A stretch of DNA of 64,000 bases, taken from Deltaproteobacteria bacterium. GTDB lineage: Bacteria; Desulfobacterota; Binatia; Binatales; Binataceae. Where the stretch lies: contig PLDK01000003.1 of assembly GCA_003135135.1 (NCBI GenBank), positions 1,492-65,491 on the forward strand, in the 5' to 3' direction. The notes under the pieces are model-generated. The model ran no database searches. It saw nothing but the letters and a program-made list of their open reading frames with translations, and was not told the DNA's origin. Shown piece after piece: positions 8,017 through 42,460 of the stretch (positions are counted from its first letter, which is position 1; every line of letters starts with the position of its first letter). The position numbers were made by a program, and so were the translations under genes.

Positions 8017-8976
8017 TCAGTACTTCACCTTCAGGAGCTTGCGAATTGAGAGGAACGCCAGGGCGTCGAGCACGCAGGCAACTTCGAGAATCTTTTGGCC
8101 GGACGGATCGTAAAAGAGCGTGTTGGTGTAGCTTGGCTGGATGATACTGAACGCACCCAGCATCACGATCGGCAGGAAGCCGACCAGTATCCCGCTCATC
8201 CTGGATTGGGCCGTAAGCGCCTTGATTTGCTGTTGCAGACGCTGGCGGGTGCGAACGATTTCCGAGAGCCGTCCGATTATTATTGCCAGCGAACTGCCGA
8301 CTTCCGCCTGGACCCGGACCGCGACGACCAGCAGGCGGAGGTCATCCTGGGGCACGCGCTTGAGCATCTCTTCGAGCGCGCGGGGCAGCGGCAGCCCGAG
8401 CCGGCTCTGTTCGATAGCGGAGCGGAATTCGGTGGAGATCGGATCGGCGAACTCGGCCACCACGACTTGCAATCCGCGCAGCAGCGTATGGCCGGCTTCG
8501 AGTGACGATTTGATCAAATCGAGCGCGTACGGCAGTTGCTTGGCGAATGCCTTGAGGCGCCGCTGCCTGCGCAGCCGGATATAAATTATCGGCAGGCTTG
8601 CCATCGCCGCGCCCATCGCGATCGACAGGAGTTCCAACCCCCAAATCGCCTCGCCGGCGATCAGGCCGGCCGTGAACATCACCAGGATCACGAGCAGTAC
8701 GTCGACGATGCGGGCGTAGATTCCGGCCTGCCAGAGGTTTTCCTCGAGTTTTTGGAGCAGATTGAGCCGATAGAACCAGCTTAGAAATTCGCGTCCGGTA
8801 AGGCGGCGACGATCGGTCTTGGTGATGTCGTCGGCCAGGGCGACATTGGGCCGCGACATCCGGCGCATCACGGTGCGCGTGACGCGGGGCCGATTGGGCC
8901 GCATGAACAGCATCGCGCAGGCAATCAGCACGAGGCCCGCGGCCGCAGCCGGAATCAACAGGTCGCCGAGGTTCAT
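8017..8976 (-). CDS. tadB: Flp pilus assembly protein TadB (T2SSF-domain platform protein)
   Basis: T2SSF-family membrane protein. It has a 4-nt overlap with the cpaF stop. Confidence 0.8.
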
Positions 8977-10355: not shown

Positions 10356-10374
10356 CTTGCATACCTCATCGACT

Positions 10375-11553: not shown

Positions 11554-11677
11554 CGTGCTGCGACGACCCTCACTCTTTGATCCGTTTAATGGCACTCGAT
11601 GTTTTTCCTAAGTATGCGGGGTCTGGCAGCGGGGAATGTTCGTGCGTAGGTTCCTGCGCATCCTCATGGCTTTCCCC

Positions 11678-22547: not shown

Positions 22548-23804
22548 TCACGACGAGTCCCGCTCCTCAAACTGTTCGTCGGAGGGTTTGACGGCGCGGA
22601 ACTGAATCAGCAATGCGATGTCGTAAATTGTTTTGAGCGCGCCCGCGCAAATCAGCGGCCATCCAAACGACGAATGATTCAGCATCGCGCCCGCCGGCAA
22701 TGGCGCCAGCGCCGCCGCCAGGCTGCGCGGCACATTGGTCACTGTCGCCGCGGCCGCGCGCTCCTCGGGCGGCACCACCGCCATCACATACGACTGGCGC
22801 GCGGGAACGTCCATCTGAGAGGTCGAAAAGCGCAGCAGCAGAAATGCCATCGCCAGCCCCGGGGTCGGCATCAACGCCGCGATGATCAGCATGGCGTTCG
22901 ACGGCAGATGGCTGAACACCATCGTGTTGATTCGGCCGAACCGCGCCGCAAGCGCCGACGAAATAAACTGTGAAAACGAGCTAAGCAGTCCGGCCGCGAA
23001 AAAAAACGTGCCCGCCACTTGAACTGAGAGGTTGAAGCGGCGAAACAGCCACAGCGCCAGCAGTGACTGAATTACGAATCCGCCGCCGAGCGAGTCGAGA
23101 CTGAACAGCGCCGAAAGCCGCAGCACGATTGCCCGCGACTTCGCCAGCGGCGCGGACTTGGCGGGCTGGCGCTCGACTTCGATGGCCGGGGAGAGACGCC
23201 GATAAACCGCGAACGCAATCACCGCGATGATCGAGTATGCGACGAAGCCCGACCGCAGCGCCGGCGCGAGCGCCCATCCATGGCGCGCCGCGAGTATCGC
23301 CGGCACGCCACTGGCCAGCGCGCCAAACGCACCAGCCGTCGCGCCCGCAACGTTGTACAGCGCGAACATCGCGGTCAGATCGCCAGGCTCTGCGGCCTCG
23401 GCCAACGCCGCCTGCTCGACGGGCAGAAACAGGCTGACGTCGCCGGCCGATGGATTCAGCGTGCCGACGACCGCCACCACGAACAGCAGCCAGAAGCTCT
23501 CCGTGGTGGCGAATCCTATTCCCGTCGCCAGCATCAGCGCGCACGCCGCAAGCAGGACTCGACGCCGGCCCAGCCGATCGGTGGCCAGCCCCACCCATAG
23601 CGTTAACGCCGCCGAACCCAGCAGCGTGCCAAACACGATTGCGCCGACGCGGAGCGGATTGAAGCCGATCGCGGTCAGGTAGCTTGGCAACAATATGCTG
23701 ACTGCCCCGTCGGCAAGGCCGCGCAGCGCGCGTGTCGCCAGCAGCAGCTTGGCGTCAGTCGTAGCGCTGCGCGGGAACCATCGACTGATCGGACTCACCA
23801 TCAT
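22548..23804 (-). CDS. MFS transporter (12 TM)
   Basis: Hydrophobicity pattern and an MFS loop motif (G..DR.GRR). Confidence 0.8.
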   Translation of the reverse strand: MMVSPISRWFPRSATTDAKLLLATRALRGLADGAVSILLPSYLTAIGFNPLRVGAIVFGTLLGSAALTLWVGLATDRLGRRRVLLAACALMLATGIGFATTESFWLLFVVAVVGTLNPSAGDVSLFLPVEQAALAEAAEPGDLTAMFALYNVAGATAGAFGALASGVPAILAARHGWALAPALRSGFVAYSIIAVIAFAVYRRLSPAIEVERQPAKSAPLAKSRAIVLRLSALFSLDSLGGGFVIQSLLALWLFRRFNLSVQVAGTFFFAAGLLSSFSQFISSALAARFGRINTMVFSHLPSNAMLIIAALMPTPGLAMAFLLLRFSTSQMDVPARQSYVMAVVPPEERAAAATVTNVPRSLAAALAPLPAGAMLNHSSFGWPLICAGALKTIYDIALLIQFRAVKPSDEQFEERDSS

Positions 23805-24004
23805 CTGGCCAAAACCTAACCCCTAACCCCTTCCCAATCTGGGAAGAGGAACAGTCGCATTGAGATGGTCTATAAGGCGCGCGCCGCCGAGGGAAGCCAA
23901 TAGCATAACGCTCTGTTCGCCGATCCGCTCGTTGTGGCATACTCTTGGCCTCTGCGCGTGTTTTTGAGGAGCAATCGTCCACGGCCATTCGAAGGGAAAG
24001 CTCG

Positions 24005-24289
24005 ATGCGCGTCGAAATCAGCGATGGCGTCATATGGCGGGATCTCGGCGGCGACGTGGTCATCTTGAACGTCGAAACGGGCGTCTACTTCGGCCTCGAC
24101 GGCTCGGGTGGCCAGATATGGCGCGAACTCGTCGAACACGGTTCCATTGAGAAAACCTTCGCCTCGCTAAAGCAGCAGTTCGACGTCGAACCCGATGAGC
24201 TACGCCGCGACCTCGACGCTCTCATGAATCAACTTGTCGAAAAGAGACTCGTGCATCTGATCGCCGAACCTAAAGGTCGTTTGCGATGA
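24005..24289 (+). CDS. PqqD-family RiPP recognition element (lasso peptide B1 protein)
   Basis: About 94 aa, PqqD-like (ILNVETGVYFGLDGSGGQIWRELVE... ). It lies directly upstream of the Asn-synthetase-like cyclase. The ORF extends to 23945, but the RBS-supported start is 24005. Confidence 0.8.
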   Translation: MRVEISDGVIWRDLGGDVVILNVETGVYFGLDGSGGQIWRELVEHGSIEKTFASLKQQFDVEPDELRRDLDALMNQLVEKRLVHLIAEPKGRLR

Positions 24290-24335
24290 CGCCAAGGCTG
24301 GAGGCATCGGGCCGTCACCCCGGCGCTTCGATCTA

Positions 24336-26288
24336 ATGAGCGGCATCGCGGTCCTCTATCAATGGGACGGAGCTCCAGCGGACCGCTCGACTGTCGAGCG
24401 GATGATTGATGTCATCCCGTACCGCTCGGTTGACGGCTTCGGCGTATGGGGCAACGGCCCGGTCGCGATTGGGCATGCAAAGCTCCAGACGACGCCCGAA
24501 GCTTCGGCTGAGACCAGCCCGTTCGTGGACGAAACCAGCAGGCTCGTTCTATCGATGGACGGGCGGGTGGATAACCGCGACGAACTCACGGCGGAGTTGA
24601 ATTCGCATGGTCATCGTGTTCGCACGGGCACGGACGCCGAGATCGTGCTGCGCGCCTGGCAGTGCTGGGGTACCGAGGCGCCTGCGAGAGTCATAGGCGA
24701 TTTCGCGTTCGCCTTATGGGACCCATCGAAGCGGACGCTCTTCTGTGCCCGGGATCCTTTGGGAGTAAAAAGCTTCTACTACTTCAATGGCCCAGGATTC
24801 TTTCTGTGCGCCTCGGAGCTTCATCAACTGTTCCAGGATCCAAGGGTCGTACGAAGGCCGAACGAGCCTGCTATAGCCGAGATGCTGGTGAGGCTCCCGG
24901 TAGACCGCGAGGAGACACTCTTCGAAGGTGTCAGCCGCCTCGAGCCGGCGCATTATCTGAGCGTGAGCGCGCGTGGCGTGGAACGTCGGCGCTACTACGA
25001 TCTGGACGCCTCACGGGAGATTATCTATCGGAGCGACGACGAATACTCCGATCATTTTCTCTCGCTGTTCAAGGAGGTGATGCGATGCCACCTTCGCAGC
25101 AACAAGGGAGTCGCCTCGGACCTGAGTGGCGGGCTTGATTCATCATCGATTGTCTGTTTGACAGAACAACTACGCCACGACGGCGAAGTGCAACTTCCTA
25201 GTTTTGAAAGCTTCACGGTTCCCTTCGAGACCGGACCCGCAGCCGAGACTGAGTACGTCGAAGAGGTCTTACATAAGTATCCTCATCGCCATACCTATCT
25301 TCCTCCAGGAATGGCCCCGCTCGGCCAGCTCACTGCCCAGGTTGCGCACTATCTGGACTTTCCGGATTTTCCCAACTCTGGATGCACCGATTACACGCCG
25401 ATTCTTGGCAATCGTAACGACCTGAGAGTTCGGCTGACCGGACTGGGCGGCGACGAGTGGTTTTCCGGAACATACTTAGTATATGCAGACCTGGTCAGGC
25501 AGCTTCGCATGATGGCGCTGTTGCGCAGGCTGCGGATTGATCGAAATCCACCGGTCGGATTCGCGCCCTTTCCGGGCTATGCCAGGACCCTTTGGCGGTA
25601 TGGCGTTTTGCCCCTCGTGCCCGACGGCCTTAAGTCGGCGCTCAGGCCATGGCTGCGTCGTCCGCCTGAGCTTCACCCGCTGGTCGTGCCCGCGTTCGCG
25701 GCCAGGACGAAACTTTTGGAGCGCCTGTCCACGAGGCGGCCGTTGCCCCGGAGCCGCAGCTTCGCACAGCAGGATCTGTTCAGGTACTACTTTTCCGGAT
25801 TGCTCTCGTACTCCCTTGAGATGGATGCACGGTGGACCGCGGGCTTTCGACTGGAGGCACGGCATCCTTTCCTGGACCGCCGCATACTCGAGTTTGCCTT
25901 CGCCATACCTGATAACCAACGATTCAGGCCCGGCGTCAGCAAGTTCGTGTTGCGCAATTCGATGCGTGGAATCCTGCCGGAGCGGGTACGGCTGCGGTAT
26001 GATAAGACTCACCTGACAGAGTTATACCCAATGGCGCTAATCGCGCTCGGCGGCGAGCGGCTGTTCGATCGCCTCAACGTCGTCAAAAACGGATGGGTCG
26101 ACGGAGTCGTTGTGCGCAGGCTTTACCGCTCGATGGCTGAGGCGTTTTCTCGCCGCGATCCCTCTTACGCAGAGAATGTCTTCGAACTGTGGAACATCTT
26201 TGCGCTCGAACTCTGGCTCAACGTGGTGTTTCTCGGTATCAGTGAGCCTTTCAAGCACGTGGCCGAAACCACAGAAGCGGCTTGGTGA
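24336..26288 (+). CDS. Asparagine synthetase B homologue: lasso peptide cyclase (C protein)
   Basis: N-terminal Ntn-glutaminase-like domain in which the catalytic Cys2 is replaced by Ser (MSGIA...), as in lasso cyclases, followed by an AsnB adenylation domain (SGGLDSS PP-loop). Length is 650 aa. Confidence 0.85.
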   Translation: MSGIAVLYQWDGAPADRSTVERMIDVIPYRSVDGFGVWGNGPVAIGHAKLQTTPEASAETSPFVDETSRLVLSMDGRVDNRDELTAELNSHGHRVRTGTDAEIVLRAWQCWGTEAPARVIGDFAFALWDPSKRTLFCARDPLGVKSFYYFNGPGFFLCASELHQLFQDPRVVRRPNEPAIAEMLVRLPVDREETLFEGVSRLEPAHYLSVSARGVERRRYYDLDASREIIYRSDDEYSDHFLSLFKEVMRCHLRSNKGVASDLSGGLDSSSIVCLTEQLRHDGEVQLPSFESFTVPFETGPAAETEYVEEVLHKYPHRHTYLPPGMAPLGQLTAQVAHYLDFPDFPNSGCTDYTPILGNRNDLRVRLTGLGGDEWFSGTYLVYADLVRQLRMMALLRRLRIDRNPPVGFAPFPGYARTLWRYGVLPLVPDGLKSALRPWLRRPPELHPLVVPAFAARTKLLERLSTRRPLPRSRSFAQQDLFRYYFSGLLSYSLEMDARWTAGFRLEARHPFLDRRILEFAFAIPDNQRFRPGVSKFVLRNSMRGILPERVRLRYDKTHLTELYPMALIALGGERLFDRLNVVKNGWVDGVVVRRLYRSMAEAFSRRDPSYAENVFELWNIFALELWLNVVFLGISEPFKHVAETTEAAW

Positions 26289-26364
26289 CCCTCATCGATG
26301 CGCTCTTCAAGCTGTAAACCCTGTCGCAATGCATGGCAGAGCGAACTGAAATGGAACGAGTAAA

Positions 26365-27507
26365 ATGTCTTTGATGCTGGATGAGCATCGCCTGTATCTT
26401 TCCGACCTGAACCGAACCTCATTGTTTCGACGGGCGATCAACGCCGTGGTTAAGCCGGGCGACCTCGTGCTCGACATCGGCTGCGGGACTGGGGTGCTTG
26501 GCCTGCTCGCGATGAAGGCCGGAGCCGCAAGGGTGTACCAGATTGACCAATCGCCCATGATCCAGGTCGCCGGCGACGTGGCATCTGCCAATGGTTACGG
26601 GCAAAGCACGATCGGGATTCACGAACGCTCCGGTCGTGCCAGGCTTCCCGAAAAGGCCGACGTCGTCGTTGCCGATCAGCTGAGCCACTTCGGAATTGGC
26701 GCCGGGATGCCCGAGGTATTCAACGACGCCCGCCGGCGTCTCCTCAAGCCGGGCGCCCGCGCGATCCCTCGACGCATCGAACTCTTCCTCGTCCCGGTGA
26801 ATTTTCCCGAGATGTGGGGCATCGCCGGCTTCTGGGAGAAAAGACATGCCGGGCTGAAGATGTCGCCGGCACGCAGCATTGCATTCAATACCGTTTACCC
26901 CAGCGAGAAGAGCCCGCGTCGGAGGCTGGGCAGACCCGCGCGGATGTTCAGCTTTGACCTTACGGACCTGACGCCGGAACGCTTCTCTGCCAAGGCTGCG
27001 ATCGAGGTTTCAGCGGCCGGCGTTATGCACGGTCTCAGCGGATGGTTCGTTGCCGAACTGGCGCCGGGCGTGATCATGACCAATTCGCCTTTTCGCAAAA
27101 GCCGAATCCAACGATCTGCGGTGTTTTTTCCGGTCGAGAAGCCTTTAGCGTTGAGCAAGGGGGATCGCCTGGATATCACGATGACTGCTATTACCGCGCA
27201 GAATCTCCTTAGCTGGAAGGTGGTGGTCTTCAATACTAAAGGTAGGGAAAAGGCACGATATGTTCATTCCACGCTCAATGGGATGTCGCTCATGCCTGGC
27301 GAATTGGCTAAGACCCGTCCGGACTTTGTGCCACACCTGTCGGATTGGGGCGTGGCGCGAAGGTCAGTGGTCAATCTGGCCGATGGAACACGCACACTGG
27401 CTGAAATAGAAAGGGAATTATTCCGAATTCATTCGGCTCTCTTCCCCTCATTGGCGGATGCAGCGGAATACGTCACCAAGGTTCTCATCGCCGACGCGAA
27501 CCCCTGA
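26365..27507 (+). CDS. Class I SAM-dependent methyltransferase with PRMT-like (protein arginine N-methyltransferase-like) motifs
   Basis: Motif I VLDIGCGTGVLGLLAMKAGAARVY, post-I VVVADQLSHFG (compare PRMT IIISEWMGYxL), about 380 aa with a C-terminal beta-barrel-like region. Confidence 0.7.
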   Translation: MSLMLDEHRLYLSDLNRTSLFRRAINAVVKPGDLVLDIGCGTGVLGLLAMKAGAARVYQIDQSPMIQVAGDVASANGYGQSTIGIHERSGRARLPEKADVVVADQLSHFGIGAGMPEVFNDARRRLLKPGARAIPRRIELFLVPVNFPEMWGIAGFWEKRHAGLKMSPARSIAFNTVYPSEKSPRRRLGRPARMFSFDLTDLTPERFSAKAAIEVSAAGVMHGLSGWFVAELAPGVIMTNSPFRKSRIQRSAVFFPVEKPLALSKGDRLDITMTAITAQNLLSWKVVVFNTKGREKARYVHSTLNGMSLMPGELAKTRPDFVPHLSDWGVARRSVVNLADGTRTLAEIERELFRIHSALFPSLADAAEYVTKVLIADANP

Positions 27508-27615
27508 CCGACTTGACCTTGGTCGTCGTCTTTCATAATCTGAACCCGCGTTTTCGAACCAGGTAGCGCATCCGTATCTTGACCAGCTTCGGCGAATCAG
27601 GAAGGGTTATGCTGC

Positions 27616-27642
27616 TTGTAAGAAGCGCAAGTGTGCTATATA
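27616..27642 (+). promoter_or_regulatory. Candidate sigma-70-type promoter (TTGTAA-N15-TATATA) upstream of the lasso precursor gene
   Basis: Sequence match in the AT-rich intergenic region, about 55 nt upstream of the precursor ATG. Confidence 0.35.
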
Positions 27643-27698
27643 AAGAAACGTGACGTTTTGGTGCGAGGCGAGATGCAATTGGAGTTTGGGGATTGGAG

Positions 27699-27869
27699 AT
27701 GATTAAAAAAATTAAGACAGACGCGCAGAAGCCTCGGACGCAGAGCATCAAGAAACCTTATGTCCGTCCTCACCTCGTAGAGTACGGCAACGTGGCAAAG
27801 CTCACAGCTTCAGGCGGCACGGCTGCATCTGACGGGATATCCGGGCAACGCCAAATTATGATAGGCTAG
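27699..27869 (+). CDS. Lasso peptide precursor (56 aa): MIKKIKTDAQKPRTQSIKKPYVRPHLVEYGNVAKLTA/SGGTAASDGISGQRQIMIG
   Basis: Found by manual translation; it is missing from the ORF track. GGAG RBS at 27695. The leader carries the conserved YxxPxLxxxG-x5-T-x motif (YVRPHLVEYG NVAKL T A). The predicted 19-aa core starts at Ser1 with Asp8 as the macrolactam acceptor. Confidence 0.75.
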   Translation: MIKKIKTDAQKPRTQSIKKPYVRPHLVEYGNVAKLTASGGTAASDGISGQRQIMIG

Positions 27870-27971
27870 CAGACCATCGGACTCCCCACCGAGGTTCTTG
27901 CGAGCTGATTCGCGTGGTCAAAATTACAGCCGGCTGCTACGCTTGGGGAAGAGACCGGGTACAATCCGTCG

Positions 27972-29021
27972 GTGGGGCAAATCGAACGGTCTCAACCGGA
28001 ACTTTTCTGGGCATCGCGCTCCGTCACCGACCTGAGCAAAACGAGAATCCCAGACTTTCATCAGCAAGCCTACGGGCTGCAAATCGTTACAGACCTTCCG
28101 CTTCCGGAGCTTCCGGCACTTCGAGTGTCGTCGGTAGGGTCGGCGGTTCGCGCGACTCTAGGCGGACGCTCTCAGCGCCTCCGCCTCAATCCCCGATGGT
28201 ACCTGCGTTCGCGGCTTCCAGGCGGCAGGATTTGGCTCCGCTGCGGCAAGACTCCGGCTGGTTACGTACTTTCCTTTGCTAACATAGCCGACTTTGTCAT
28301 TGACAGCTCCGGAAGCCAGGTAGTCTGCTGCAACGCGAGCAGCGACGTTAGTCTGGAGACCATCCGTCATCTCCTTATAGACCAGGTGCTCCCGCTGGTT
28401 GTAAACCTGCGCGGCCGGGAGGCCCTGCACGCTACTGCGGTCGCGACGCACAGGGGAGTTTGTGCATTCACGGGACCTGCAGGGTCGGGTAAGTCAACGC
28501 TCGCCGCGAGCTTCGTCCTATCTGGGTATCCGCTGGTCTGCGACGATTGCCTGGCGCTTTCCGAAGGCAAAGCGTTTATGGCGCTTCCCGGTTATCCGGG
28601 TTTGCGGCTGTGGCGCGATTCGATCCGGGCGCTTGGCGCAAGTTCACGGAATCTGAAGCCGGTCGCGCACTATACGACAAAATCGCGCTTAAAAAACCAC
28701 TCCCGACGCGCCGACTTCTGCTCGACAACACGCCGGCTCGCGCGCATCTATCTGCTCGAGCGCGCGCGATCGAGCAAACACTCAGCCCGCGTCGCGATCC
28801 AGGAGCTCGCTCCCGGCGAGGCGCTGATGGGGCTGGTCAAGGCGGCCTATAGGCTCGACATCACCGACCGTGCGATGCTGACGCGTCAGTTCCAGTTCCT
28901 CTCCCGCGTTGCCGAGCGCGTTCCGGTCAAACGTCTCATCGTGCCCAATGAATTTTCCGCACTCGCCGAGGTAAGAGCGGCGGTGCTGCACGACTTGAGC
29001 CACCGTCGGCCGCCCCGTTGA
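27972..29021 (+). CDS. HPr kinase/phosphorylase-like protein: putative lasso-peptide tailoring kinase
   Basis: HprK C-terminal domain signature LHATAV...GVCAFTGPAGSGKSTLAASFVLSGYPLVCDD (compare HprK GxSGxGKSE...ADD). Confidence 0.75.
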   Translation: MGQIERSQPELFWASRSVTDLSKTRIPDFHQQAYGLQIVTDLPLPELPALRVSSVGSAVRATLGGRSQRLRLNPRWYLRSRLPGGRIWLRCGKTPAGYVLSFANIADFVIDSSGSQVVCCNASSDVSLETIRHLLIDQVLPLVVNLRGREALHATAVATHRGVCAFTGPAGSGKSTLAASFVLSGYPLVCDDCLALSEGKAFMALPGYPGLRLWRDSIRALGASSRNLKPVAHYTTKSRLKNHSRRADFCSTTRRLARIYLLERARSSKHSARVAIQELAPGEALMGLVKAAYRLDITDRAMLTRQFQFLSRVAERVPVKRLIVPNEFSALAEVRAAVLHDLSHRRPPR

Positions 29022-29133
29022 GCGCTATACCAAGGCGATAGATGTCTCAGAAACGCGAAGCTCCGCGGGTCGCAGGACCCGCGGAGCCATCGCACAAACG
29101 ATCAAGACCTAAGCCTTAAATTCTCCATCCCGA

Positions 29134-30129
29134 TCAGAACGGAGTCAGCGGAATGCAGGCGGGACTCAACACGCCGTCGGCATCGGCCGTGCCATAGTCG
29201 TTGGTGACCCAGTGGTTGCCTCCGCACGTGCTGCTCGCGTCGTGGAGATCGTGACCGCTTGTAACACCATTGCCCGATGCGCTTATGAGGTAAACCTGAT
29301 CCATGTTGGTCGATTCACTTGCGTCCAGGAAAATTCCGTCACCGTTGTTGCCAGTGACCGCAGCTGAACCAGCGGTAGCACCTTCGGGCGCATCGCCCAC
29401 CTTAACCTCGGAATTGGAGCCGCAACCCCATGTGCAGCCTACGTGCACGCCAGCGCCACCGTTACCGGTAGCGGTGAACACGCTGATCCTCGGTCCGTCC
29501 GAGCCGGTTACGAGCACTCCATCGGCGCCGTTGCCTGAAGCGCTGAAGTCTGAAATGCCGCACTCATCACCGCAGTTATATATGTAAATACCCTGCTTGC
29601 TATTCGCCGTGGAATCAACATTGGTCCATATTTCCGTCGTGCTCTCGCCAGTGCCGTTCATCTCCAGCCCGACTCCGTTGTCGGTCGTGACGATCGCATC
29701 GCCTGCAGTATTACCTCCCTTATCCAACACACCCACTGCAAACCCCGAGATTACGCTGCCACCGCCTTCGATCACGTCCTCATTGGCTGAGCTTTCGACG
29801 AAGATTCCGTCCCCTGTCGAGGTCCCCGTCCCAGTGTACGTGATGCTGTAACCCTGGAGACTAAGGGTGTTGTCGTGGCCACCGAGAGTGAGGCAGGTGT
29901 TGCCGGCGACAGTCTCGGTGAGGTTATTCTGTACCAGATAGATCGTGTTGTTAGCCGTGTACGACCCGCACGTGGTGATACCCATGGGATCTACGGCGTT
30001 CGCAGACGCATGAGCCTTCTTGGCCCAAGCGGCCTGCGGGCCAGTCAGGACAAGCGCGGCCGTCAAAGCAAGAAAAGATACGCCAGGAGCGCCTATACTT
30101 TGAAAAAACCCTCGTTTGATTGCCTTCAT
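29134..30129 (-). CDS. Secreted parallel beta-helix repeat protein (Gly/Asn/Thr-rich, GNG/GDG repeats)
   Basis: Signal peptide followed by low-complexity repeats typical of right-handed beta-helix proteins. Confidence 0.55.
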   Translation of the reverse strand: MKAIKRGFFQSIGAPGVSFLALTAALVLTGPQAAWAKKAHASANAVDPMGITTCGSYTANNTIYLVQNNLTETVAGNTCLTLGGHDNTLSLQGYSITYTGTGTSTGDGIFVESSANEDVIEGGGSVISGFAVGVLDKGGNTAGDAIVTTDNGVGLEMNGTGESTTEIWTNVDSTANSKQGIYIYNCGDECGISDFSASGNGADGVLVTGSDGPRISVFTATGNGGAGVHVGCTWGCGSNSEVKVGDAPEGATAGSAAVTGNNGDGIFLDASESTNMDQVYLISASGNGVTSGHDLHDASSTCGGNHWVTNDYGTADADGVLSPACIPLTPF

Positions 30130-30380
30130 ATCGTTTATGCTCCTTCGCCTTTCTTTCGTTTTCTGTGTGGCGACACCATTAATAAGCGGCTCTTGGCAAC
30201 TCTTGTTCTTGGACGTTTGCTCACGACGTGCCGAGGTAGATTTAGCAATGGTTTAGATCGACGGCGAATCATTTCATTTTGCCTCCCTTGAGTCAAGCGG
30301 TTCTATGACGCCCATTGACGGCTTTGCTATTCGATTTTAGTCGTTAGAAGTCGTAGATTAGGCTCAGCGACGTAAATCTC

Positions 30381-30549
30381 TACAAGTTGTTATCCTGTTG
30401 CCCACAAAACGAAAGCCGGTGTCGCCGATAGATACACTTGCAAAGCGCAGTCGCTGGCCGCTTTCAGTCTACAATTTGTCATCCGGTTGTTATGCTCTTG
30501 CGGACGAGAAGGAAACGGCTGTCACCGATCGATACACTTGCAAGGCGCA
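30381..30549 (+). repeat. Tandem direct repeat (about 69 + 80 nt copies, roughly 85% identical). It overlaps the start of the nucleotidyltransferase gene.
   Basis: Copy 1 is 30381-30449, copy 2 is 30470-30549. Both encode the peptide [KR]KR.[VL]SPIDTLA[KR]R, but in different frames. Confidence 0.7.
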
Positions 30550-31802
30550 CTTGGTCCCAGCTCGCGCCTGGGGCTATTGTTGACAACTCTGTGGAATTCG
30601 ACGCCCTCCTCGACCTTGCCGGCTTGTCCATCGAAGCGGCGCTCGTGCTGTGCTGCGCGACAACTGCGGCCACGCCCGTGCGCACGGAACTGGCGGCCGA
30701 CCTTGCGCCGCGCGTGCGCAGTTGGGACCGCGTCGTCGATATCGCCAAACGTCATGCGGTGCTCCCGTTAGTACATCGCTATCTGAAACTCGAATGTCCG
30801 ACCGCGGTTCCGGGAGAGGGGCTTGCGAAGCTGCGGACGCAGTGGCAGCTGATCATTCTCTACAACCGTCATCTGACCGCCGAACTTGTGCGCCTGATGG
30901 GCCTGCTGAAAGCGGCTGGAGTTCCGGCTGTCACCTTCAAGGGTCCGGTACTTGCCGCGATGGCATACGGATCGATCGAACTTCGCCAGTTCAGCGATCT
31001 GGATATTCTCGTGCGTCAGACTGACCTGCCCCGGGTCGCCGAAATACTCACCGCCGAACGATATTTGTCGCCACATACCAGGCGCGAAGGTCTCGCCACC
31101 GGCTACTTTCAGGAGTACGAGGACGCCTTCGTCGGACCCGACGGGCTGGGCGCCGTGGACGTTCATTGGAACCTCACGCCGCGGTCGTTCCGTTTCGCCC
31201 CCGACGAGGAAGGCCTGTGGCGGCGCGCGCACGAGGTCGATCTGGAGTTCGGCAAAGCGATGGCGATCGCGCCCGACGACCTGTTGCTGTACATCTGCGT
31301 TCACGCCACGAAGCATGGATGGGTCACGCTCGGATCGATCTGCGATGTCGCCGAGACCGTTCGCGCGCGTCCGGAAATCGATCTGATGAGGATACTCGAC
31401 GAGGCAACCTCACTCGGGAGCCGGCGGATGTTCCTGACCGGCATCTGCCTGGCGCACGAGCTGGTCGGCGCGCCGATTCCCGCCGATCTTGTCACGATAG
31501 CTCGCGACGACCGCGCCGCCCGGGCATTGGCAGGACGCGTGGCGGGGCAACTGTTCAGCGGAGCCACGCAGGGACGGGCAGACTTCGATCCGTGGGCGGT
31601 TCCGATCCGCTCGATCGAGGGCGCACGCGCGCGAATGCGCTACATCGTCCGCCGAATGCTGGCGCCGACGATGGGCGACTACGAACTCATCCCGCTGCCA
31701 GCAGCGCTCTTTCCGCTCTACTGGGTGATTCGGCCGTTTCGGATGGCAGTGCAATACGGGCCGCGGCTGGTCCGCGGCTCTTCGACCAGTTCGAACGCGT
31801 GA
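30492..31802 (+). CDS. Uncharacterised nucleotidyltransferase-family protein (PF14907-like), a type often linked to kinase-containing lasso clusters
   Basis: About 436 aa, with the architecture and motifs (GS...DLDILV) of the 'uncharacterised nucleotidyltransferase' family. The start is taken at MLLRT (30492) inside repeat copy 2; the ORF track start is 30438. Confidence 0.55.
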   Translation: MLLRTRRKRLSPIDTLARRTWSQLAPGAIVDNSVEFDALLDLAGLSIEAALVLCCATTAATPVRTELAADLAPRVRSWDRVVDIAKRHAVLPLVHRYLKLECPTAVPGEGLAKLRTQWQLIILYNRHLTAELVRLMGLLKAAGVPAVTFKGPVLAAMAYGSIELRQFSDLDILVRQTDLPRVAEILTAERYLSPHTRREGLATGYFQEYEDAFVGPDGLGAVDVHWNLTPRSFRFAPDEEGLWRRAHEVDLEFGKAMAIAPDDLLLYICVHATKHGWVTLGSICDVAETVRARPEIDLMRILDEATSLGSRRMFLTGICLAHELVGAPIPADLVTIARDDRAARALAGRVAGQLFSGATQGRADFDPWAVPIRSIEGARARMRYIVRRMLAPTMGDYELIPLPAALFPLYWVIRPFRMAVQYGPRLVRGSSTSSNA

Positions 31803-31835: not shown

Positions 31836-31911
31836 TGGTGAGCCGGCCGGGACTTGAACCCGGGACCCTGTGATTAAAAGTCACATGCTCTACCGCCTGA
31901 GCTACCGGCTC
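31836..31911 (-). tRNA. tRNA-Lys (anticodon UUU), 76 nt with encoded CCA
   Basis: Manual cloverleaf: acceptor GAGCCGG/CCGGCTC, D-arm GCTC..GAGC, anticodon stem TGTGA/TCACA with loop CTTTTAA, T-arm CCGGG TTCAAGT CCCGG. Confidence 0.85.
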
Positions 31912-32356: not shown

Positions 32357-33580
32357 ATGCGCCTACATGAGTACTCGGCGAAAGGATCGCCGGTCGCGAC
32401 TGCGAGGCAGAATCTTGGCGCCCAGCCGGCGGACGCAACGTCCGAGTGGTTGAGCCTGGCGGATCTTGCGCACGGGTCGGAACGGATTGGCGGGGCGGTG
32501 GTGCGGTCGGCGCACGCGCGCAAAATACTCAAAACCATTTCACGCTTGAGTCCGTACAAGGCAACGGTCCTGATTCACGGCGAATCCGGAACCGGGAAGG
32601 AACTGGTCGCGCGCGCGCTGCATACGATGGGCTCGGCGCCAAACGGTCCGTTCGTGACCTTCAATTGCTCCAACCTGGTCGAGTCGCTGGCAGAGTCGCA
32701 GCTTTTCGGTCATGTGCGCGGCGCATTCACCGATGCCCGCGAGGATTCGCTCGGCTATTTTCGCTCCGCCAACGGCGGAACTCTATTTCTGGACGAAGTC
32801 GGCGAGCTTCCGCTGCGCCTGCAGCCCAAGCTGCTGCGCGCGCTCGATACCCACGAGATTCAGCCGGTCGGTTCTTCACGCACCTACTCGGTTGATATTC
32901 GGCTGGTCGCGGCAAGCAATCGCGACCTGCACGCGATGGTCAAGGCGGGGCAATTCCGCGACGACCTCTACTACCGCCTTAACGCGGCGGCAATCCTGGT
33001 TCCGCCGCTTCGCGAGCGGCGCGAGGCAATCCCGGCCTTCATCGCTCATTTTATCGAGCACTTCAACCGCCTGTTCGGCAAAGATATAAAGCTCGTTTCG
33101 CGGATCGCCTTGGACGCACTGTACGCCGACCCGTGGCCCGGCAACGTCCGCGAGCTCAGCCATGCAATCGAGAGCGCGGTGCTGATGACCGAAAACGATC
33201 GTATCGATCTCGACGACCTGCCTTTGCGCCACCACGATGCGAATCCGGAAGTGGTGGGCGAGTCGGTCGAGAAGGTGCTGCAAAACGGCGGGCTCAATCT
33301 CGACGGCGGGCCCAATGGCGACGGGATTGACTGCGAGAAGGCGTCGAAGCGGTGCTTCGAAATGGCGAGCTGGCCCTACTCGCTCGACGCGGTAATCCGC
33401 GAGGCCTCGAAAGTCGCGCTGGTTCGCGCGCTGGAAGCGACCGAGGGCAATTGCCATCGCGCGGCCGAGTTGCTGGGCGTATCGCGCTACACGGTTTACC
33501 GAATGCTGAACCGGTATGGCCTGGGCGAAGGCCATACCTACAGGACGCTGCGCAAGTCGACTGTACGCCGCGCGTCTTGA
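32357..33580 (+). CDS. Sigma-54-dependent transcriptional activator (AAA+ plus HTH) with no receiver domain; paralogue of 4131-5291
   Basis: GESGTGKELVARALH, GAFTDA, and a C-terminal HTH (RAAELLGVSRYTVYRML). The N-terminus is short. Confidence 0.9.
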   Translation: MRLHEYSAKGSPVATARQNLGAQPADATSEWLSLADLAHGSERIGGAVVRSAHARKILKTISRLSPYKATVLIHGESGTGKELVARALHTMGSAPNGPFVTFNCSNLVESLAESQLFGHVRGAFTDAREDSLGYFRSANGGTLFLDEVGELPLRLQPKLLRALDTHEIQPVGSSRTYSVDIRLVAASNRDLHAMVKAGQFRDDLYYRLNAAAILVPPLRERREAIPAFIAHFIEHFNRLFGKDIKLVSRIALDALYADPWPGNVRELSHAIESAVLMTENDRIDLDDLPLRHHDANPEVVGESVEKVLQNGGLNLDGGPNGDGIDCEKASKRCFEMASWPYSLDAVIREASKVALVRALEATEGNCHRAAELLGVSRYTVYRMLNRYGLGEGHTYRTLRKSTVRRAS

Positions 33581-36397: not shown

Positions 36398-37372
36398 GTG
36401 CCTCGCGTTTCGGTAATCATTCCCGCGTACAACGCGGCCTCGACTATCGCCGGCACCTTGGACAGCGTAATCGGGCAGACCTTCCAGGATTTTGAAATCA
36501 TTTGCGTTGACGACGGCTCGACCGATCGAACCCGCGCAATCGTTGAACAGTACGCCCGGGACTGCGGCGACCGCCTGAGGCTTATCGAGCAGGCCAACAG
36601 CGGACCGGCGGCGGGGCGCAACAATGGCGCGCGGCATGCGACGGGCGAGTATCTCGCTTTTCTTGATGCCGACGACGTCTGGACGGCGCCGATGCTCGAG
36701 CGGACGGTGGCGGTTCTGGACGCCGCCCCCCTGCTCTCGCTGGTGTATTGCAACGCGGCGCTCGCCGACAGCGAAGGCGTGGCGCTGGATACGTCGCTGG
36801 TCGGCAAAGGCTTCGACCATCCGCCGTCGCTGCATGAACTGCTGACGCGGCTGTGGCCGATAATGCCGAGCGCGGCGCTGGTGCGGCGCTGCGCGTACGA
36901 AAAATGCGGCGGCTATCGCGACGAATTGCGCGGCGCGAGCTTCCGCTTCGAGGACGTAGATTTCTGGATCAAGATGCGCGAGCAGGGGCCGTTCGGCTAT
37001 ATCGCCGAGCCGCTGGTGATATGGCGGTTCGCATGGTTTCCGAAGCAGCTCAAGCGGTTGCCTGACTATTCGAAAGCGTTGCACGTTTTCGAGGCGTATC
37101 TGCAGGAGCGTTACGGGGTTTCCGCGGCGCCGCTGGTAAAGGCACGGACGCGGGCTCCACGGAGTATCCTGGCGACGATAGGATTGAAGGCGCTTCGCGA
37201 CGGCGATCGCCCCAGGGCGCGGGCGGCGTTCGCGCGCGCGATCAGGGTGGATCCCTACCGGCTGAAGAACTACCTGCGCTGGATGAGGACGTTTCTGCCG
37301 GATCGGCTGGCGCAGAATCTATCGGGTAAAAGTTCTCGGCGTGCTCGATCTGGCGGCGCGTATCAGGAATAA
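36398..37372 (+). CDS. Family 2 glycosyltransferase
   Basis: VSVIIPAYN...DDGSTD...LDADD (DxD) GT2 motifs. Confidence 0.8.
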   Translation: MPRVSVIIPAYNAASTIAGTLDSVIGQTFQDFEIICVDDGSTDRTRAIVEQYARDCGDRLRLIEQANSGPAAGRNNGARHATGEYLAFLDADDVWTAPMLERTVAVLDAAPLLSLVYCNAALADSEGVALDTSLVGKGFDHPPSLHELLTRLWPIMPSAALVRRCAYEKCGGYRDELRGASFRFEDVDFWIKMREQGPFGYIAEPLVIWRFAWFPKQLKRLPDYSKALHVFEAYLQERYGVSAAPLVKARTRAPRSILATIGLKALRDGDRPRARAAFARAIRVDPYRLKNYLRWMRTFLPDRLAQNLSGKSSRRARSGGAYQE

Positions 37373-38665
<1,293 letters not shown>

Positions 38666-38750
38666 GGAAGCTGCGCTCGATCCGCAAGTAACTTTTCAGG
38701 TGGCGCGGATCGCGCGATAGTCACTACCTTCGAAGATCGAACCGCACAGG

Positions 38751-39716
38751 CTATCGACTGTCACGGGAACGATCGAGTGCGCGAATAATGCTCATCGGGA
38801 GTAGCGTTCGCGCGATCCTCAAATATGTCTTGAACGCCGTGCGATCATAAGAGAGCGAGCGAATCAGGCATTTGCGCGCGGCGGCTCGATTACCCTTGCT
38901 GAGTTCAGCAAGGCCAGTATTTCTGAGGATACGGACTTTGTGTTGGGTGTAACTCTGAAGAACTCCAGACGCGCGATCTCCATATCGAGATCGAATCGAG
39001 CGCACGAAGAGCTCGCCGCGGCTGTCTCGCCTGAGCACTTTGGGATATAGCGGGCCCATCGTGAACCGCGTCAGCTTTTCGGGCAAATAGCTGAACTCGC
39101 CTTGTTCGCGAATACGAATCCAGAAGTCCAGGTCCTCGCTGAATCCTTCGGCAAAACGGCCGCATTTTTCATAGGCCGCGCGACGCATCACGACCGTGCT
39201 TGGCATGATCGGCCACAAACGGCTGAGCATCTCGTCGAGGGTGGGAGGATGCGCTGTTTGCGCATCGACGGGCGAAGTACCGAGGTCCCGGCCAGCGGTG
39301 TCGCAATTGGAAACATCCGTATAGACCAGTGCGACTTGCGGGGACTTGTCGAGAATCGCGATCGACTTTTCGAGTTTGGTTGGCAGCCAGAAATCATCTG
39401 CGTCCAACAACGCGAGATACTCGGCTTTCGACTTTGCGATTCCGGCGTTGCGGGCGGCGCAAAATCCCTGGTTGGGCTGCCGAATGATCACGATCCTGGA
39501 ACCAAACCGTTCAAGTATGGAAGCCGTTGCGTCGGTCGAGCCGTCATCGACGACGACGACCTCGTAGTCGGTGACGGTTTGATCGAAGATGCTCTGGAGC
39601 ACAAGGCTAATCGTGGCGGCCCCGTTATAAACCGGGATTATTACCGAGACGCGCGGGGCGCGTCCGCCGGATGTTGACGCGGCAGATGTCATCCGCGCCG
39701 GCTCAGGCCTCGCCAT
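38751..39716 (-). CDS. Family 2 glycosyltransferase
   Basis: VSVIIPVYNGA...DDGSTD...LDADD motifs. Confidence 0.8.
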   Translation of the reverse strand: MARPEPARMTSAASTSGGRAPRVSVIIPVYNGAATISLVLQSIFDQTVTDYEVVVVDDGSTDATASILERFGSRIVIIRQPNQGFCAARNAGIAKSKAEYLALLDADDFWLPTKLEKSIAILDKSPQVALVYTDVSNCDTAGRDLGTSPVDAQTAHPPTLDEMLSRLWPIMPSTVVMRRAAYEKCGRFAEGFSEDLDFWIRIREQGEFSYLPEKLTRFTMGPLYPKVLRRDSRGELFVRSIRSRYGDRASGVLQSYTQHKVRILRNTGLAELSKGNRAAARKCLIRSLSYDRTAFKTYLRIARTLLPMSIIRALDRSRDSR

Positions 39717-40623
39717 CGCCCGTGCGCGAGGTCGCCAGCGGCGAGCGGGCCGGAAGGAAAGTCTTCAAGTATCGACGGTAGGCCTTCGGTGACGCGGGTT
39801 GATAGTGGATGACGCGGGCGAGACAACGGCGCGCATCCTTGGGGCGTCCCTCCTCCATCAGAGTGCGGGCCATATGTCTCATGACCTTCATTCGCATGCG
39901 CCGGAATTCCCGGATGAGACCGGTGGCCGAGGCGCCATAGCGCGCGCGGACCAGCCGAACGAACAGTTCGCACACTTGCTCGCGTTCCAGCGCCTTGGGA
40001 TAGAGCGGGCGCGTGGTCTTGCGCACCAGCAATTCGGGGACGGATCGGAAATGCCCGTATTCGCGGGCATTGAGCAGGAAATAGAGATCCTCGCATGACG
40101 TTACGCAGCGCTCGTCAAATCCATCGCATCGGTCGAAGACCTCGCGGCGCACCATGAACTGACTCGGCACGACATTCCACGGGCGCTCGAGCATCTGCGC
40201 GAGCGTCGGAGAATCGACGCCTTGGGTCTGGCTGTCCTGGTTGGGCATCGGCCGGCCGGCCAGATCCACCTTGAGCGCTCCCGTGTACACCAGCACGCAA
40301 TTCGGATCTTGATCAAGGACGGCTGCGGATCGCGCGAGGTTTTGGGGCATCCATTCGTCGTCATCGTCGAGGAACGCGACATACTCGCCGCCCGATGCGC
40401 GTACGCCTGCGTTGCGCGCCCCGGAAAGACCGCGATTGGGCTGGCTGACAACGCGAATTCGATCGCCGTAACCGGCCAGCACCGACGCGGTATCGTCGGT
40501 CGAGCCATCGTCGAGGACCACGACTTCATAGTCGGAGTACGACTGCGCGAACACGCTCGCGAGCGCGCGGCTGATCGTGGCTGCGCCGTTATATACCGGA
40601 ATTACTACCGACACCTTTGCCAT
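39703..40623 (-). CDS. Family 2 glycosyltransferase (paralogue of 38751-39716)
   Basis: VSVVIPVYNGA...DDGSTDD...LDDDD motifs. It overlaps the downstream GT2 by 14 nt. Confidence 0.8.
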   Translation of the reverse strand: MAKVSVVIPVYNGAATISRALASVFAQSYSDYEVVVLDDGSTDDTASVLAGYGDRIRVVSQPNRGLSGARNAGVRASGGEYVAFLDDDDEWMPQNLARSAAVLDQDPNCVLVYTGALKVDLAGRPMPNQDSQTQGVDSPTLAQMLERPWNVVPSQFMVRREVFDRCDGFDERCVTSCEDLYFLLNAREYGHFRSVPELLVRKTTRPLYPKALEREQVCELFVRLVRARYGASATGLIREFRRMRMKVMRHMARTLMEEGRPKDARRCLARVIHYQPASPKAYRRYLKTFLPARSPLATSRTGDGEA

Positions 40624-40632
40624 TGCGGGTCG

Positions 40633-41571
40633 CTATTTCCCTTGAATGGCGTCAGCGCGAGGAGCTGCGGGACTGCAATCAGCCTGAGGTCTCTTCCACA
40701 TGGAAAGGTCTCGCCCGATCATCGGCTCCAGCGCATCGAATTCCGGCCGCATTAAATCGTGAAGGCGCGCTTCAGTCTCCTGATCAAGAGATGAGAACTT
40801 CGGCCCGCCGCCGAATGAGAATTTCCAAAGTCCCACTCGTTCAAGGAAATTGAGCATGCCGTAAAGTTGTTTCTCTTCGAGCCAGTACATGAAATGGCGC
40901 GCCTTGCGGGCGACGTGCGGAAACCTTGGCAGATCGGTAATTGAATTGATCAACTGGCCCTGGGCTGCCAATGCCGGCACGGGGTACCGCGCGATACCGA
41001 TAAAATCGCAAACCCGGTCGAGGTAGGCCTGCGGATCGGCGCGCAGGTCGTCGTTGAGCAGGACCAGCACCCGGTCCTGGCCAAACCGCGCGCGCCAATC
41101 GGGCAGATGCCTGGCATAGCGGGTCACTTCGATCACCTGCGGAACTTTTATGAGGAACTCATCGAGCGGAAAATTCGTAAGCGTGTAGTGACGCCAGAGT
41201 TTATAAGCCGAGTAGATTCGCTCGACCGGATTGCGAAACGTGCAGATGATTTTGCATCGCGGGATATGCAGCGCGATGCGCTCGGCGGCCTCAGGGAATC
41301 CGAAGTATGGATTGACCTCGCCAATCGGGCGGCTGCCGTCGGCATCGCGAAAGTGATGCGCGTACCACTGGATTCCCTTGTGGTAGTTGGTGGTGAAGAA
41401 ATCGGTCTCCTTGATTCCAGCCGGCAGATCGACACCGCCCTTGAGGACTTCATGAAGCCACGTTGTGCCGGTCCGGCCCGGTCCGACCGCAACGAAATCG
41501 GGCAGTCTCAGTTGACGTCCGCTATTTAACGATTGAGTCACGAAGATCGTCACGGCTGATCGCGCGCGCAC
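40633..41571 (-). CDS. Sulfotransferase-family protein (PAPS-dependent)
   Basis: 5'-PSB motif GPGRTGTTWL and 3'-PB motif RNPVERIYSAY. Confidence 0.8.
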   Translation of the reverse strand: MRARSAVTIFVTQSLNSGRQLRLPDFVAVGPGRTGTTWLHEVLKGGVDLPAGIKETDFFTTNYHKGIQWYAHHFRDADGSRPIGEVNPYFGFPEAAERIALHIPRCKIICTFRNPVERIYSAYKLWRHYTLTNFPLDEFLIKVPQVIEVTRYARHLPDWRARFGQDRVLVLLNDDLRADPQAYLDRVCDFIGIARYPVPALAAQGQLINSITDLPRFPHVARKARHFMYWLEEKQLYGMLNFLERVGLWKFSFGGGPKFSSLDQETEARLHDLMRPEFDALEPMIGRDLSMWKRPQADCSPAAPRADAIQGK

Positions 41572-42460
41572 CAGATATAGCTGCCTTTCGCTTATCGTGG
41601 CCAGCTTGTGGTGCGCGCGGTTTCTTCCACGCAGAGAGATCGATCGTAAGCAATTCCTCGAGCTCCTCGACTTCGGGGAGGTAGCGCTGACGCAGGCGCT
41701 CCTCCTGCTCGGGCGTCAGCCAGCCGAACGGCTCGCCGCGGCCGTGGCAGAAATCCCATACGCCCCAGCGGTCCAGAAGATTTATCGCGCCGTATGCCTG
41801 GCGGACCTTGAACCAGTACATCAAGCGCGTCGCGCTGCGTGCGAGCCTGCGATTTTTTGGCGCGCGATCGAACGAGTGCACATCGTCACGGATTTCGGGC
41901 CGCGCGGAAAGTGCAATCCGCTCGATGCCCATGAAATCGGTCACCCGATCCAGATACGACTGCGGCTGCGTGCGCAATTCATCATACATCGTGATGAGCA
42001 CGTTCTGGCGGCCGAAGTTTTCGAACCATTTGCGCAGATGGAATGCGTAGCGGTTGCCGCCGCCTAAACTGGGCCGGGATTTCAGGACCTCGTCGAACGA
42101 CCCGCGTGCCCAGGCGTAGTGCGCAACCAGTTTATAGACCGAAAACGAATGCTCGACGGGATCGCGCAGCGTGATGATTACCCGGCAGTTCGGAATGTAC
42201 GTCTTGATACGGTCGGGGGCGCGTGGTTCGAACAGGTATGGACAGATCTCGACGATCGGCCGCTGGCCGGTTGCGTAGCGAAAATGGCGCGCGTACCAGT
42301 CGATGCCCTTGTCGTAGTACGTGCTGAAAAACTGGGTCTCCTTGACGCCGTAAGGCAGATCGACGTGGCCTTCGAGCACGCGATGCAACCAGGTAGTGCC
42401 GGTGCGACCGGGACCGGCGCCGATGATCTCAGGGAGCCGATGTTTGATGGTTGCGCTCAT
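41522..42460 (-). CDS. Sulfotransferase-family protein (paralogue)
   Basis: GPGRTGTTWL and RDPVEHSFSVY. The start at MSATIK forms an ATGA overlap with the upstream sulfotransferase stop; the ORF extends to 42532. Confidence 0.8.
   Translation of the reverse strand: MSATIKHRLPEIIGAGPGRTGTTWLHRVLEGHVDLPYGVKETQFFSTYYDKGIDWYARHFRYATGQRPIVEICPYLFEPRAPDRIKTYIPNCRVIITLRDPVEHSFSVYKLVAHYAWARGSFDEVLKSRPSLGGGNRYAFHLRKWFENFGRQNVLITMYDELRTQPQSYLDRVTDFMGIERIALSARPEIRDDVHSFDRAPKNRRLARSATRLMYWFKVRQAYGAINLLDRWGVWDFCHGRGEPFGWLTPEQEERLRQRYLPEVEELEELLTIDLSAWKKPRAPQAGHDKRKAAISGARAISRDDLRDSIVK

Follow-up and report, generated by a model that had tools for sequence, protein, structure and literature searches.

The DNA analysed here is a 64-kb stretch of contig PLDK01000003.1 (hereafter the window, labelled WIN when it is set beside the related loci, which carry L-numbers such as L002 or L004). 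Between positions 24,005 and 31,802 it carries a group of genes which, judged by sequence, is a genuine lasso-peptide biosynthetic cluster of the split-B type on the chromosome of an uncultured soil bacterium, Candidatus Binatus (Binatota). Six open reading frames (ORFs), all intact in the window, belong to the cluster: a recognition element (B1) for peptides synthesised by ribosomes and modified after translation (RiPPs), a macrolactam cyclase (C), an S-adenosylmethionine (SAM) methyltransferase with the fold of protein arginine methyltransferases (PRMTs) (M), a precursor peptide (A), a kinase (K) and a nucleotidyltransferase-family protein (N) (Table 1). Domain evidence was taken from Pfam (E <= 0.01) and NCBIfam scans of the window ORFs. 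Because of the E-values obtained and the conserved synteny in related loci, chance is excluded as an explanation of this gene group. A preliminary description of this DNA had read it as a lasso cluster in which genes for a kinase, a PRMT-like methyltransferase and a PF14907-type nucleotidyltransferase are present. The genes it named were all recovered at the same positions in the ORF list and the domain scans, as were the PqqD, Asn_synthase and PF14907 families that it expected on B1, C and N, and its core reading stands.

Table 1. Genes of the lasso-peptide cluster and its borders in the window, with the evidence for each assignment.
Feature	Position	Strand	Evidence and remarks
Major facilitator superfamily (MFS) transporter	22548..23804	-	MFS_1 1.3e-34 (Pfam); divergent transcription
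B1, PqqD-family RiPP recognition element, 94 aa	24005..24289	+	PqqD PF05402 1.5e-16
C, Asn-synthetase-like lasso macrolactam cyclase, 650 aa	24336..26288	+	Asn_synthase PF00733 5.5e-38
M, PRMT-fold SAM methyltransferase, 380 aa	26365..27507	+	PrmA 2.6e-11; PRMT_C PF22528 2e-07
A, precursor peptide, 56 aa	27699..27869	+	Direct reading, leader motif
K, HPr-kinase-related peptide kinase, 349 aa, GTG start	27972..29021	+	HprK_rel_A 1.8e-09 (NCBIfam)
Secreted parallel-beta-helix protein, 331 aa	29134..30129	-	Signal peptide; TIGR03804 repeat 0.0097 (weak)
N, nucleotidyltransferase-family protein, 403 aa	30591..31802	+	NTP_transf_5 PF14907 2.2e-56
tRNA-Lys(UUU)	31836..31911	-	ARAGORN; Rfam tRNA 72.3 bits; downstream cluster edge

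B1 matched the NCBIfam model lasso_PqqD_Bac (NF033536) at 1.5e-14, which is under the curated cutoff. It is the orthologue of B1', the second PqqD protein encoded beside C in the complete Binataceae clusters (1.2e-20, versus 1.7e-10 for the copy linked to the leader peptidase gene B2). The best NCBIfam family of C was the lasso isopeptide cyclase NF033535 (3.5e-130, 435.6 bits), and C also carries GATase_6/7 domains (GATase_7 8.6e-29). Its N-terminus reads MSGI and not MCGI; this Cys-to-Ser change had been pointed out before, and we found Ser likewise in all 15 of the 15 homologues inspected. A protein identical to the window cyclase lies on a JGI metagenome contig of 128 kb, and the contig collection has 66 blocks in which it is listed. 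The cyclase gene is spread over two to five ORFs in L003 (5987-7940), L007 (7987-9933) and L014 (7761-9712), where the adjoining genes are intact, and assembly frameshift errors seem more likely there than pseudogenes.

The precursor A reads MIKKIKTDAQKPRTQSIKKP-YVRPHLVEYGNVAKLTA|SGGTAASDGISGQRQIMIG and matches the lasso leader motif YxxPxLxxxGxxxxxTx exactly, so the motif first seen in the preliminary description was present on re-inspection. The leader of 37 aa ends with ...KKP-YVRPHLVEYGNVAKLTA, and the core SGGTAASDGISGQRQIMIG of 19 aa has the C-terminus ...QIMIG. NCBIfam lasso-leader models gave weak matches (lasso_cyano 0.0015, lasso_leader_L3 0.0039; 17.2 bits against a cutoff of 19). 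Ser1 and Asp8 are predicted to be able to form an isopeptide ring of eight residues with a tail of 11 residues, and the predicted lasso has a mass of 1786.86 Da, in agreement with the product of roughly 1.8 kDa estimated earlier. In precursors from about 25 related loci the leader reads ...KKP-Y-x-x-P-x-L-[VI]-E-Y-G-x-[VI]-A-K-L-T-[QA] throughout while the core varies, and such a constant leader joined to a changing core is the signature of RiPPs. The related cores begin with [G/S/T]-x-x-G-[S/T] or S-G-G-[S/T], and their residue 8 or 9 is Asp or Glu.

In the wider family a Cys-Leu ending and a Met-rich tail are found in most precursors, for example ...GMRMGMGMRCL and ...SGTTMMMMCL (L004, L006, L007, L009-L018, L027 and L039), and these Met/Cys tails look like Cu(I)-binding motifs. 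No RNA structure or attenuator was detected around the precursor gene (z-scores 0.14 and -0.61), and the promoter and terminator scan gave fewer matches than shuffled sequence.

K was annotated through HprK_rel_A (Table 1). The Pfam model Hpr_kinase_C (PF07475), which the preliminary description had expected on this protein, formally fails, with no match at E <= 0.01. A profile built from 20 members of the K family matched solved HPr kinases in the PDB at 1e-06 to 2.7e-05, and H153, G168, G173, K174, S175 and D192 are invariant in the family alignment. They are part of a catalytic motif H-x14-G-x2-G-x-G-K-S-x15-D-D (H153, G168, G171, G173, K174, S175, D191, D192), the spacing of which is identical to H148-G163-G166-G168-K169-S170-D186-D187 of BsfK, and the motif residues of BsfK are required according to mutagenesis (PMC10368454). 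Because of the HprK_rel_A match, the profile matches to HPr kinases and the motif spacing of BsfK, the predicted assignment of K as an HPr-kinase-type lasso kinase holds. The JGI gene call for K covers only its last 147 aa (L001, 14243-14686), and a 90-aa ORF of the opposite strand was called over the P-loop region; as the call is partial, K is hidden from automated annotation in this contig. An 89-nt tRNA-Tyr called by ARAGORN inside K (28370-28458) had no Rfam support and is probably a false positive.

The known lasso kinases PadeK, ThcoK, SyanK and PsmK phosphorylate a C-terminal Ser (PMC8498205, PMC9266682). This acceptor is absent here, as the window core ends with Gly and the related cores end with Gly, Met or Cys-Leu. 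Because the C-terminus of the precursor is Gly, K cannot act as in paeninodin, and the analogy with paeninodin drawn in the preliminary description has to be given up. By analogy, the nearer model is BsfK, which phosphorylates Ser3 of the ring and is sped up by B1 (PMC10368454). The site must still differ from that of BsfK, because position 3 of the window core is Gly. The only Ser or Thr shared by nearly all related cores stands at position 4 or 5, following a Gly, and on the BsfK analogy Thr4 would be the most likely acceptor of K in the window.

N follows K directly in L004, L006, L010, L013-L015, L090 and L092; in the window the gene of the beta-helix protein intervenes. An alternative TTG start at 30438 would lengthen N to 454 aa. 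PsmN, which is of the NTP_transf_5 type like N, adds a hexose to the phosphate of pseudomycoidin (PMC9266682).

M consists of a Rossmann domain and a beta-barrel (aa 1 to about 300) followed by a C-terminal helical domain resembling a RiPP recognition element (RRE) (aa about 320-380). Its AlphaFold model (pLDDT 92.7) resembles PRMT6, PRMT2, CARM1 and PRMT1 (Foldseek about 1e-26, TM-score 0.65-0.71), the family profile matched PRMT2 at 4.5e-43, and the SAM motifs are intact. By model and profile, M is a true PRMT-fold homologue. The Glu pair of the double-E loop and the THW loop are the residues that hold the guanidinium group in PRMTs (PRMT1 numbering). In M the first Glu is invariantly Asp (Asp104), followed by Gln105; at the second acidic position distant members have Glu or Asp, and the clade of the window has Gly112. 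The THW loop has become I248-Q249-R250, in which R250 is invariant and usually followed by a second Arg (I-x-R-R). The lasso-linked clade of M is marked by ADQ and I-x-R-R, while the non-lasso bacterial homologues in the same scan retain [ST]E...E...(T/S)HW. Of the earlier label "PRMT-like", the fold stood and the arginine-binding active site did not, since both loops are replaced.

M could still be a genuine arginine methyltransferase that acts on Arg14 in the tail. Its fold and its clear sequence homology to PRMTs speak for this, as do the single Arg of the window core and the Arg or Lys found in many related tails. Against it stand the replaced residues of the double-E and THW loops, canonical in the non-lasso homologues, and the cores of L087, L011, L012, L014 and L015, which have no Arg or Lys; the L087 core is SGGTATPVDSMSGMTGPPM, and its gene order is the same as in the window. 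Because the active-site residues are changed and Arg is not conserved in the cores, we rejected Arg as the methyl acceptor and regard arginine methylation as improbable. Met, Cys and Gln were rejected as universal acceptors, each being missing from at least one core of an M-bearing cluster. The putative Arg-lined pocket of M suggests an anionic acceptor. Since the M and K genes are adjacent and often overlap, it is an attractive but unproven hypothesis that M methylates the phosphate which K puts on; a carboxylate, of the C-terminus or of Asp, would be the more conservative alternative.

The C-terminal domain of M (residues about 320-380) is kept in the family and is missing from eukaryotic PRMTs. 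In fold comparison its best structural match was PqqD/B1, while at the sequence level no PqqD domain was seen, either in hhalign comparisons with 24 B1 proteins and with the window B1 or in Pfam at E <= 10. Homologues of M with this domain adjoin lasso genes in 23 of 24 loci, and those without it in three of 18 (Fisher p = 1.2e-07). In L043 (Vicinamibacteria, 9689-11134) a canonical PqqD domain (4.8e-12) is fused N-terminally to the methyltransferase, and in L035 (Planctomycetia, 9284-10963) a PqqD ORF lies directly upstream of a PRMT-like methyltransferase gene; both loci are from metagenome-assembled genomes (MAGs). Because of this co-occurrence with lasso genes and of the PqqD fusion and neighbour, we propose with moderate confidence, from structure model and gene context, that the domain is RRE-like and that M is guided by the leader and acts on the linear precursor. 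Between 10390 and 10394 a frameshift or stop interrupts the fusion gene of L043.

Genomic contexts of M homologues were obtained by exact-protein look-up and by a scan with one genome per species, and the loci were annotated by profile searches. At least 531 homologues of M have the same length. M and K occur together in at least 23 species-level MAG loci, with lasso B1, B2 and C genes present wherever the flanks are long enough, and N comes straight after K in about half of these loci. As hosts we recorded MAGs of Binatia ("delta proteobacterium"), Acidobacteriota, Nitrospira, Rokubacteria, Acidimicrobiia, a gammaproteobacterium and a Filomicrobium, with no cultured isolate among them. Complete Binataceae clusters are arranged as B1-B2-B1'-C-M-A-K-N-ABC (L004, L090, L092), the last gene being an ATP-binding cassette (ABC) exporter, and those of Nitrospira and Acidobacteria as B1-B2-C-A-M-K-N (L006, L010, L013). 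The two PqqD genes of the complete Binataceae clusters stand before B2 and before C (L004 4686-5780; L090 and L092 7706-8814), and the window retains only the orthologue of the second. In L019 (704-4011), a gammaproteobacterial MAG, two tandem PRMT-fold methyltransferase genes precede the kinase gene.

In principle M, K and N could serve an unrelated cellular substrate and not the lasso peptide; in the window a gene of the opposite strand lies between K and N. This is scarcely credible when M and K stand beside lasso genes in several phyla with different flanks, the precursor gene lies between or next to M and K, M occurs with RRE-like domains or PqqD fusions, and enzymes homologous to K and N are proven lasso tailoring enzymes. 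By gene content, the M-K(-N) module defines a widespread and uncharacterised lasso subfamily. The preliminary description had called the combination undescribed, and we likewise found no published description of an M-K-N lasso module in the literature covered, which was incomplete. A review of June 2026 (PMC13352647) names as lasso modifications C-terminal methylation, hydroxylation, epimerisation, a second isopeptide bond, citrullination, aromatic cross-links, chlorination, prenylation, glycosylation, phosphorylation, acetylation, acylation and aspartimide formation, none of them via a PRMT-type methyltransferase.

Among known systems, the bsf cluster of Bradymonas sediminis FA350 (BsfA/B1/B2/C/D/K/N; PMC10368454) is like the window in its split-B organisation, its HPr-kinase-like kinase with identical spacing of the motif H...G..G.GKS...DD, its PF14907-type nucleotidyltransferase and a precursor that does not end with Ser. 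It differs in having B2 and an ABC exporter, in lacking a methyltransferase and in its leader, which has Ile(-2) where the window has the canonical Thr(-2). The systems of paeninodin, ThcoK/SyanK and pseudomycoidin (PMC8498205, PMC9266682, PMC6993621) share the HprK-like kinase, which in them acts on the linear precursor; unlike the window, they have a C-terminal Ser as target, B2 and an ABC transporter, and no PRMT-fold methyltransferase. SAM methyltransferases are also used for tailoring in lassomycin and by StspM (C-terminal methyl ester), the latter acting on the linear precursor, and in lihuanodin and cellulonodin-2 (O-methylation of Asp leading to aspartimide). Were a carboxylate the target of M, its chemistry would resemble theirs. 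M differs from the StspM and lihuanodin types, as StspM and LihM are described, in its PRMT fold with beta-barrel, its RRE-like domain and its constant pairing with a kinase, and it had no Pfam match to a family named isoaspartyl or PIMT-type methyltransferase. With the eukaryotic type I enzymes PRMT1, PRMT2, PRMT6 and CARM1, M shares the Rossmann domain and beta-barrel, the SAM motifs and an N-terminal helix motif, and it departs from them in D104, G112 and Q249-R250, in the extra C-terminal domain of about 60 aa and in its RiPP cluster context.

By the canonical definition of a lasso cluster, the cluster in the window is incomplete. No B2 was found in the window by tblastn with two B2 queries. 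A hidden Markov model of 15 B2 proteins, all peptidases of related clusters, gave nothing better than E 0.7 in the six-frame translations of WIN, L002 and L007, and the positive control L004 scored 1.7e-49. No PF13471 gene was called within 10 kb on either side of the cluster, and no ABC exporter was present in the window. The B2 profile search returned B2 proteins of Binataceae and Nitrospira, none among the top 120 being labelled Candidatus Binatus; both B2 contexts examined were complete clusters from another clade and other samples. Supply of B2 in trans from a second cluster is no less possible than maturation without a cluster-encoded peptidase.

At least four species-level genomes retain this B2-less arrangement. 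One is a Candidatus Binatus sp. MAG (GCA_050013435.1) with the order of the window: response-regulator kinase, MFS transporter, B1, C, M, K, beta-helix protein, N, sigma-54 activator and cytochrome oxidase. From this gene order and from the named homologues of the beta-helix protein, the window is assigned to Binatus. Because the window B1 is orthologous to B1', this Binatus type would have arisen by loss of the B1-B2 pair, together with the exporter, from the B1-B2-B1'-C-M-A-K-N-ABC type. PsmB1 and PsmB2 were dispensable for pseudomycoidin formation in E. coli and B. subtilis (PMC6993621), and because that lasso forms without them in heterologous hosts, a B2-less cluster is plausible. The triculamin clusters triA/triC/triD/triT contain neither B1 nor B2 (PMC12070363) and resemble the window in having no leader peptidase. 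They differ in the absence of an RRE, in an N-terminally truncated cyclase and in a follower sequence. In the window, by contrast, B1 is retained, the cyclase is of full length and the leader is canonical.

Several observations weigh against a functional cluster with the tailoring proposed here. With no B2 or ABC exporter in 64 kb, production is unproven. At the Binatus locus L089 (9001-15680) the cyclase is split into two ORFs and M and K are gone, so that decay of the cluster does occur. The cores of the window and L002, and also that of L087, have lost the Cys-Leu ending and the tail rich in Met. The score of C is below the curated NF033535 cutoff of 525 bits, K fails the Pfam Hpr_kinase_C model, the L011 core has no Ser or Thr at positions 4-5, and the phosphorylation and methylation sites are inferred. 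In the place of M and K, L089 has an unrelated ORF of 573 aa on the other strand; it still has the beta-helix gene and a precursor-like ORF (core SGGSHTPTDGAALKKPG).

The missing B2 and exporter, the state of L089 and the lost Cys-Leu ending would all fit a decaying, non-productive remnant in which, once the B1-B2 pair and the exporter had gone, the other genes drift and no lasso is made any more. We consider such a remnant unlikely, given that the B2-less arrangement has persisted in those four or more genomes and that the remaining genes are well kept. Among WIN, L002 and L007, all without B2, the ratio of nonsynonymous to synonymous substitution rates (dN/dS) is 0.15-0.39 for B1, C, M and K (0.27 for C against L002; 0.15-0.30 for K) and 0.16-0.52 for A. 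No recognition residue has been lost from the leader, and Thr(-2), which the peptidase recognises, is among those kept. The low dN/dS shows purifying selection on the remaining genes, and together with the intact ORFs, the kept Thr(-2) and the intact catalytic motif of K and SAM motifs of M it speaks against simple decay.

The gene of the secreted beta-helix protein lies beside every B2-less locus examined (WIN, L002, L007, L087, L089) and beside none of the B2-containing loci examined. This distribution could mean that the protein replaces B2, as an extracellular leader peptidase or a maturation factor. The protein has no Pfam family and no protease motif. Its 42 homologues found, where named, all belong to Candidatus Binatus or Binataceae, with several paralogues per contig, and its dN/dS of 0.27-0.50 shows faster change than in the cluster genes. 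Lasso cyclisation takes place in the cytoplasm and needs a free N-terminus before export, which does not suit an extracellular peptidase. Moreover, the gene stays beside the degraded cluster of L089, so that the linkage is explained just as well by common descent of the whole neighbourhood. We therefore give the replacement of B2 by this protein very little credit; the beta-helix gene is a conserved neighbour from a Binatus-specific family with no demonstrated biosynthetic role.

The MFS gene was taken in the preliminary description as a flanking gene and possible exporter. It does flank the cluster, and it is syntenic in L087, L088 and L089, the closest Binatus genomes; the exporter role is only weakly supported, as the gene is not beside the clusters of L002 and L007. 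An exporter function of this protein is possible, with its membership in the cluster uncertain.

Taken together, the following path is proposed for the product. B1 would bind the YxxP leader and present the linear precursor, and K would phosphorylate a Ser or Thr of the ring, most likely Thr4 in the conserved G-[S/T], following the precedent of BsfK (ring Ser3, assisted by B1). M would dock via its own RRE-like C-terminal domain and methylate an acceptor other than arginine, either a carboxylate or the phosphate put on by K, and N may decorate the phosphate further in a PsmN-like manner. Either a housekeeping protease or a B2 from another locus would remove the leader after Thr(-2)-Ala(-1), and C would close the macrolactam around the tail. 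That the locus is an M-K(-N) lasso subfamily cluster with the proposed tailoring and with leader removal by a protease encoded outside the cluster is in our view the best joint explanation, and a probable one. A bolder joint claim is that bacteria have put the PRMT fold to a new use, as a RiPP tailoring enzyme guided by the leader which methylates an anionic group, most provocatively the phospho-Ser/Thr made by K (giving a methyl phosphate ester), alongside a Binatus maturation without a dedicated B2; this we put forward only tentatively and hold to be rather unlikely in full.

Elsewhere in the window, genes of sigma-54 activators are present at 4131-5291 and 32357-33580. A sigma-54-like -24/-12 element (TGGCATACTCTTGGC, 23935-23949, two mismatches) lies 56 nt upstream of B1 and was rejected, because the 58 matches in the window are fewer than the 65 expected by chance. 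Three tandem sulfotransferase genes (PF00685, 40633-43410) lie beside three GT2 glycosyltransferase genes and an epimerase gene (36398-40623), and the whole of 36398-43410 looks like a sulfated-glycan locus. The sulfotransferases are probably unrelated to those reported from some lasso clusters, being about 9 kb away from the cluster with cytochrome oxidase genes between. On the minus strand there are a Tad/Flp pilus block at 7059-12694 (two TadB/C-like T2SSF proteins, a CpaF-like T2SSE ATPase, a ParA/TadZ-like ATPase and RcpC/CpaB) and two paralogous DUF1329/LolA-like genes about 270 bp apart at 45883-48907.

Lasso peptides are prized scaffolds from which antibiotics and enzyme inhibitors can be built, and the range of products that can be made grows with every new tailoring enzyme. 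The chemistry of phosphorylation at this locus cannot be that of paeninodin and that of methylation is unlikely to be that of PRMTs, and the product and its sites are inferred. The methyl phosphate ester, if real, would be new among the post-translational modifications known from RiPPs. The remodelled PRMT pocket with its RRE-like appendage offers a testable case in which a methyltransferase fold of eukaryote type was recruited to peptide natural products. Peptidase-independent lasso formation has so far been seen only in heterologous hosts (pseudomycoidin) and in the triculamin family, and the maintained B2-less type of Binatus bears on whether natural lasso maturation can dispense with a dedicated leader peptidase. 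The presence of M-K(-N) clusters in Binatota, Acidobacteriota, Nitrospirota, Rokubacteria, Actinobacteriota and Proteobacteria points to a sizeable unexplored branch of lasso peptides.

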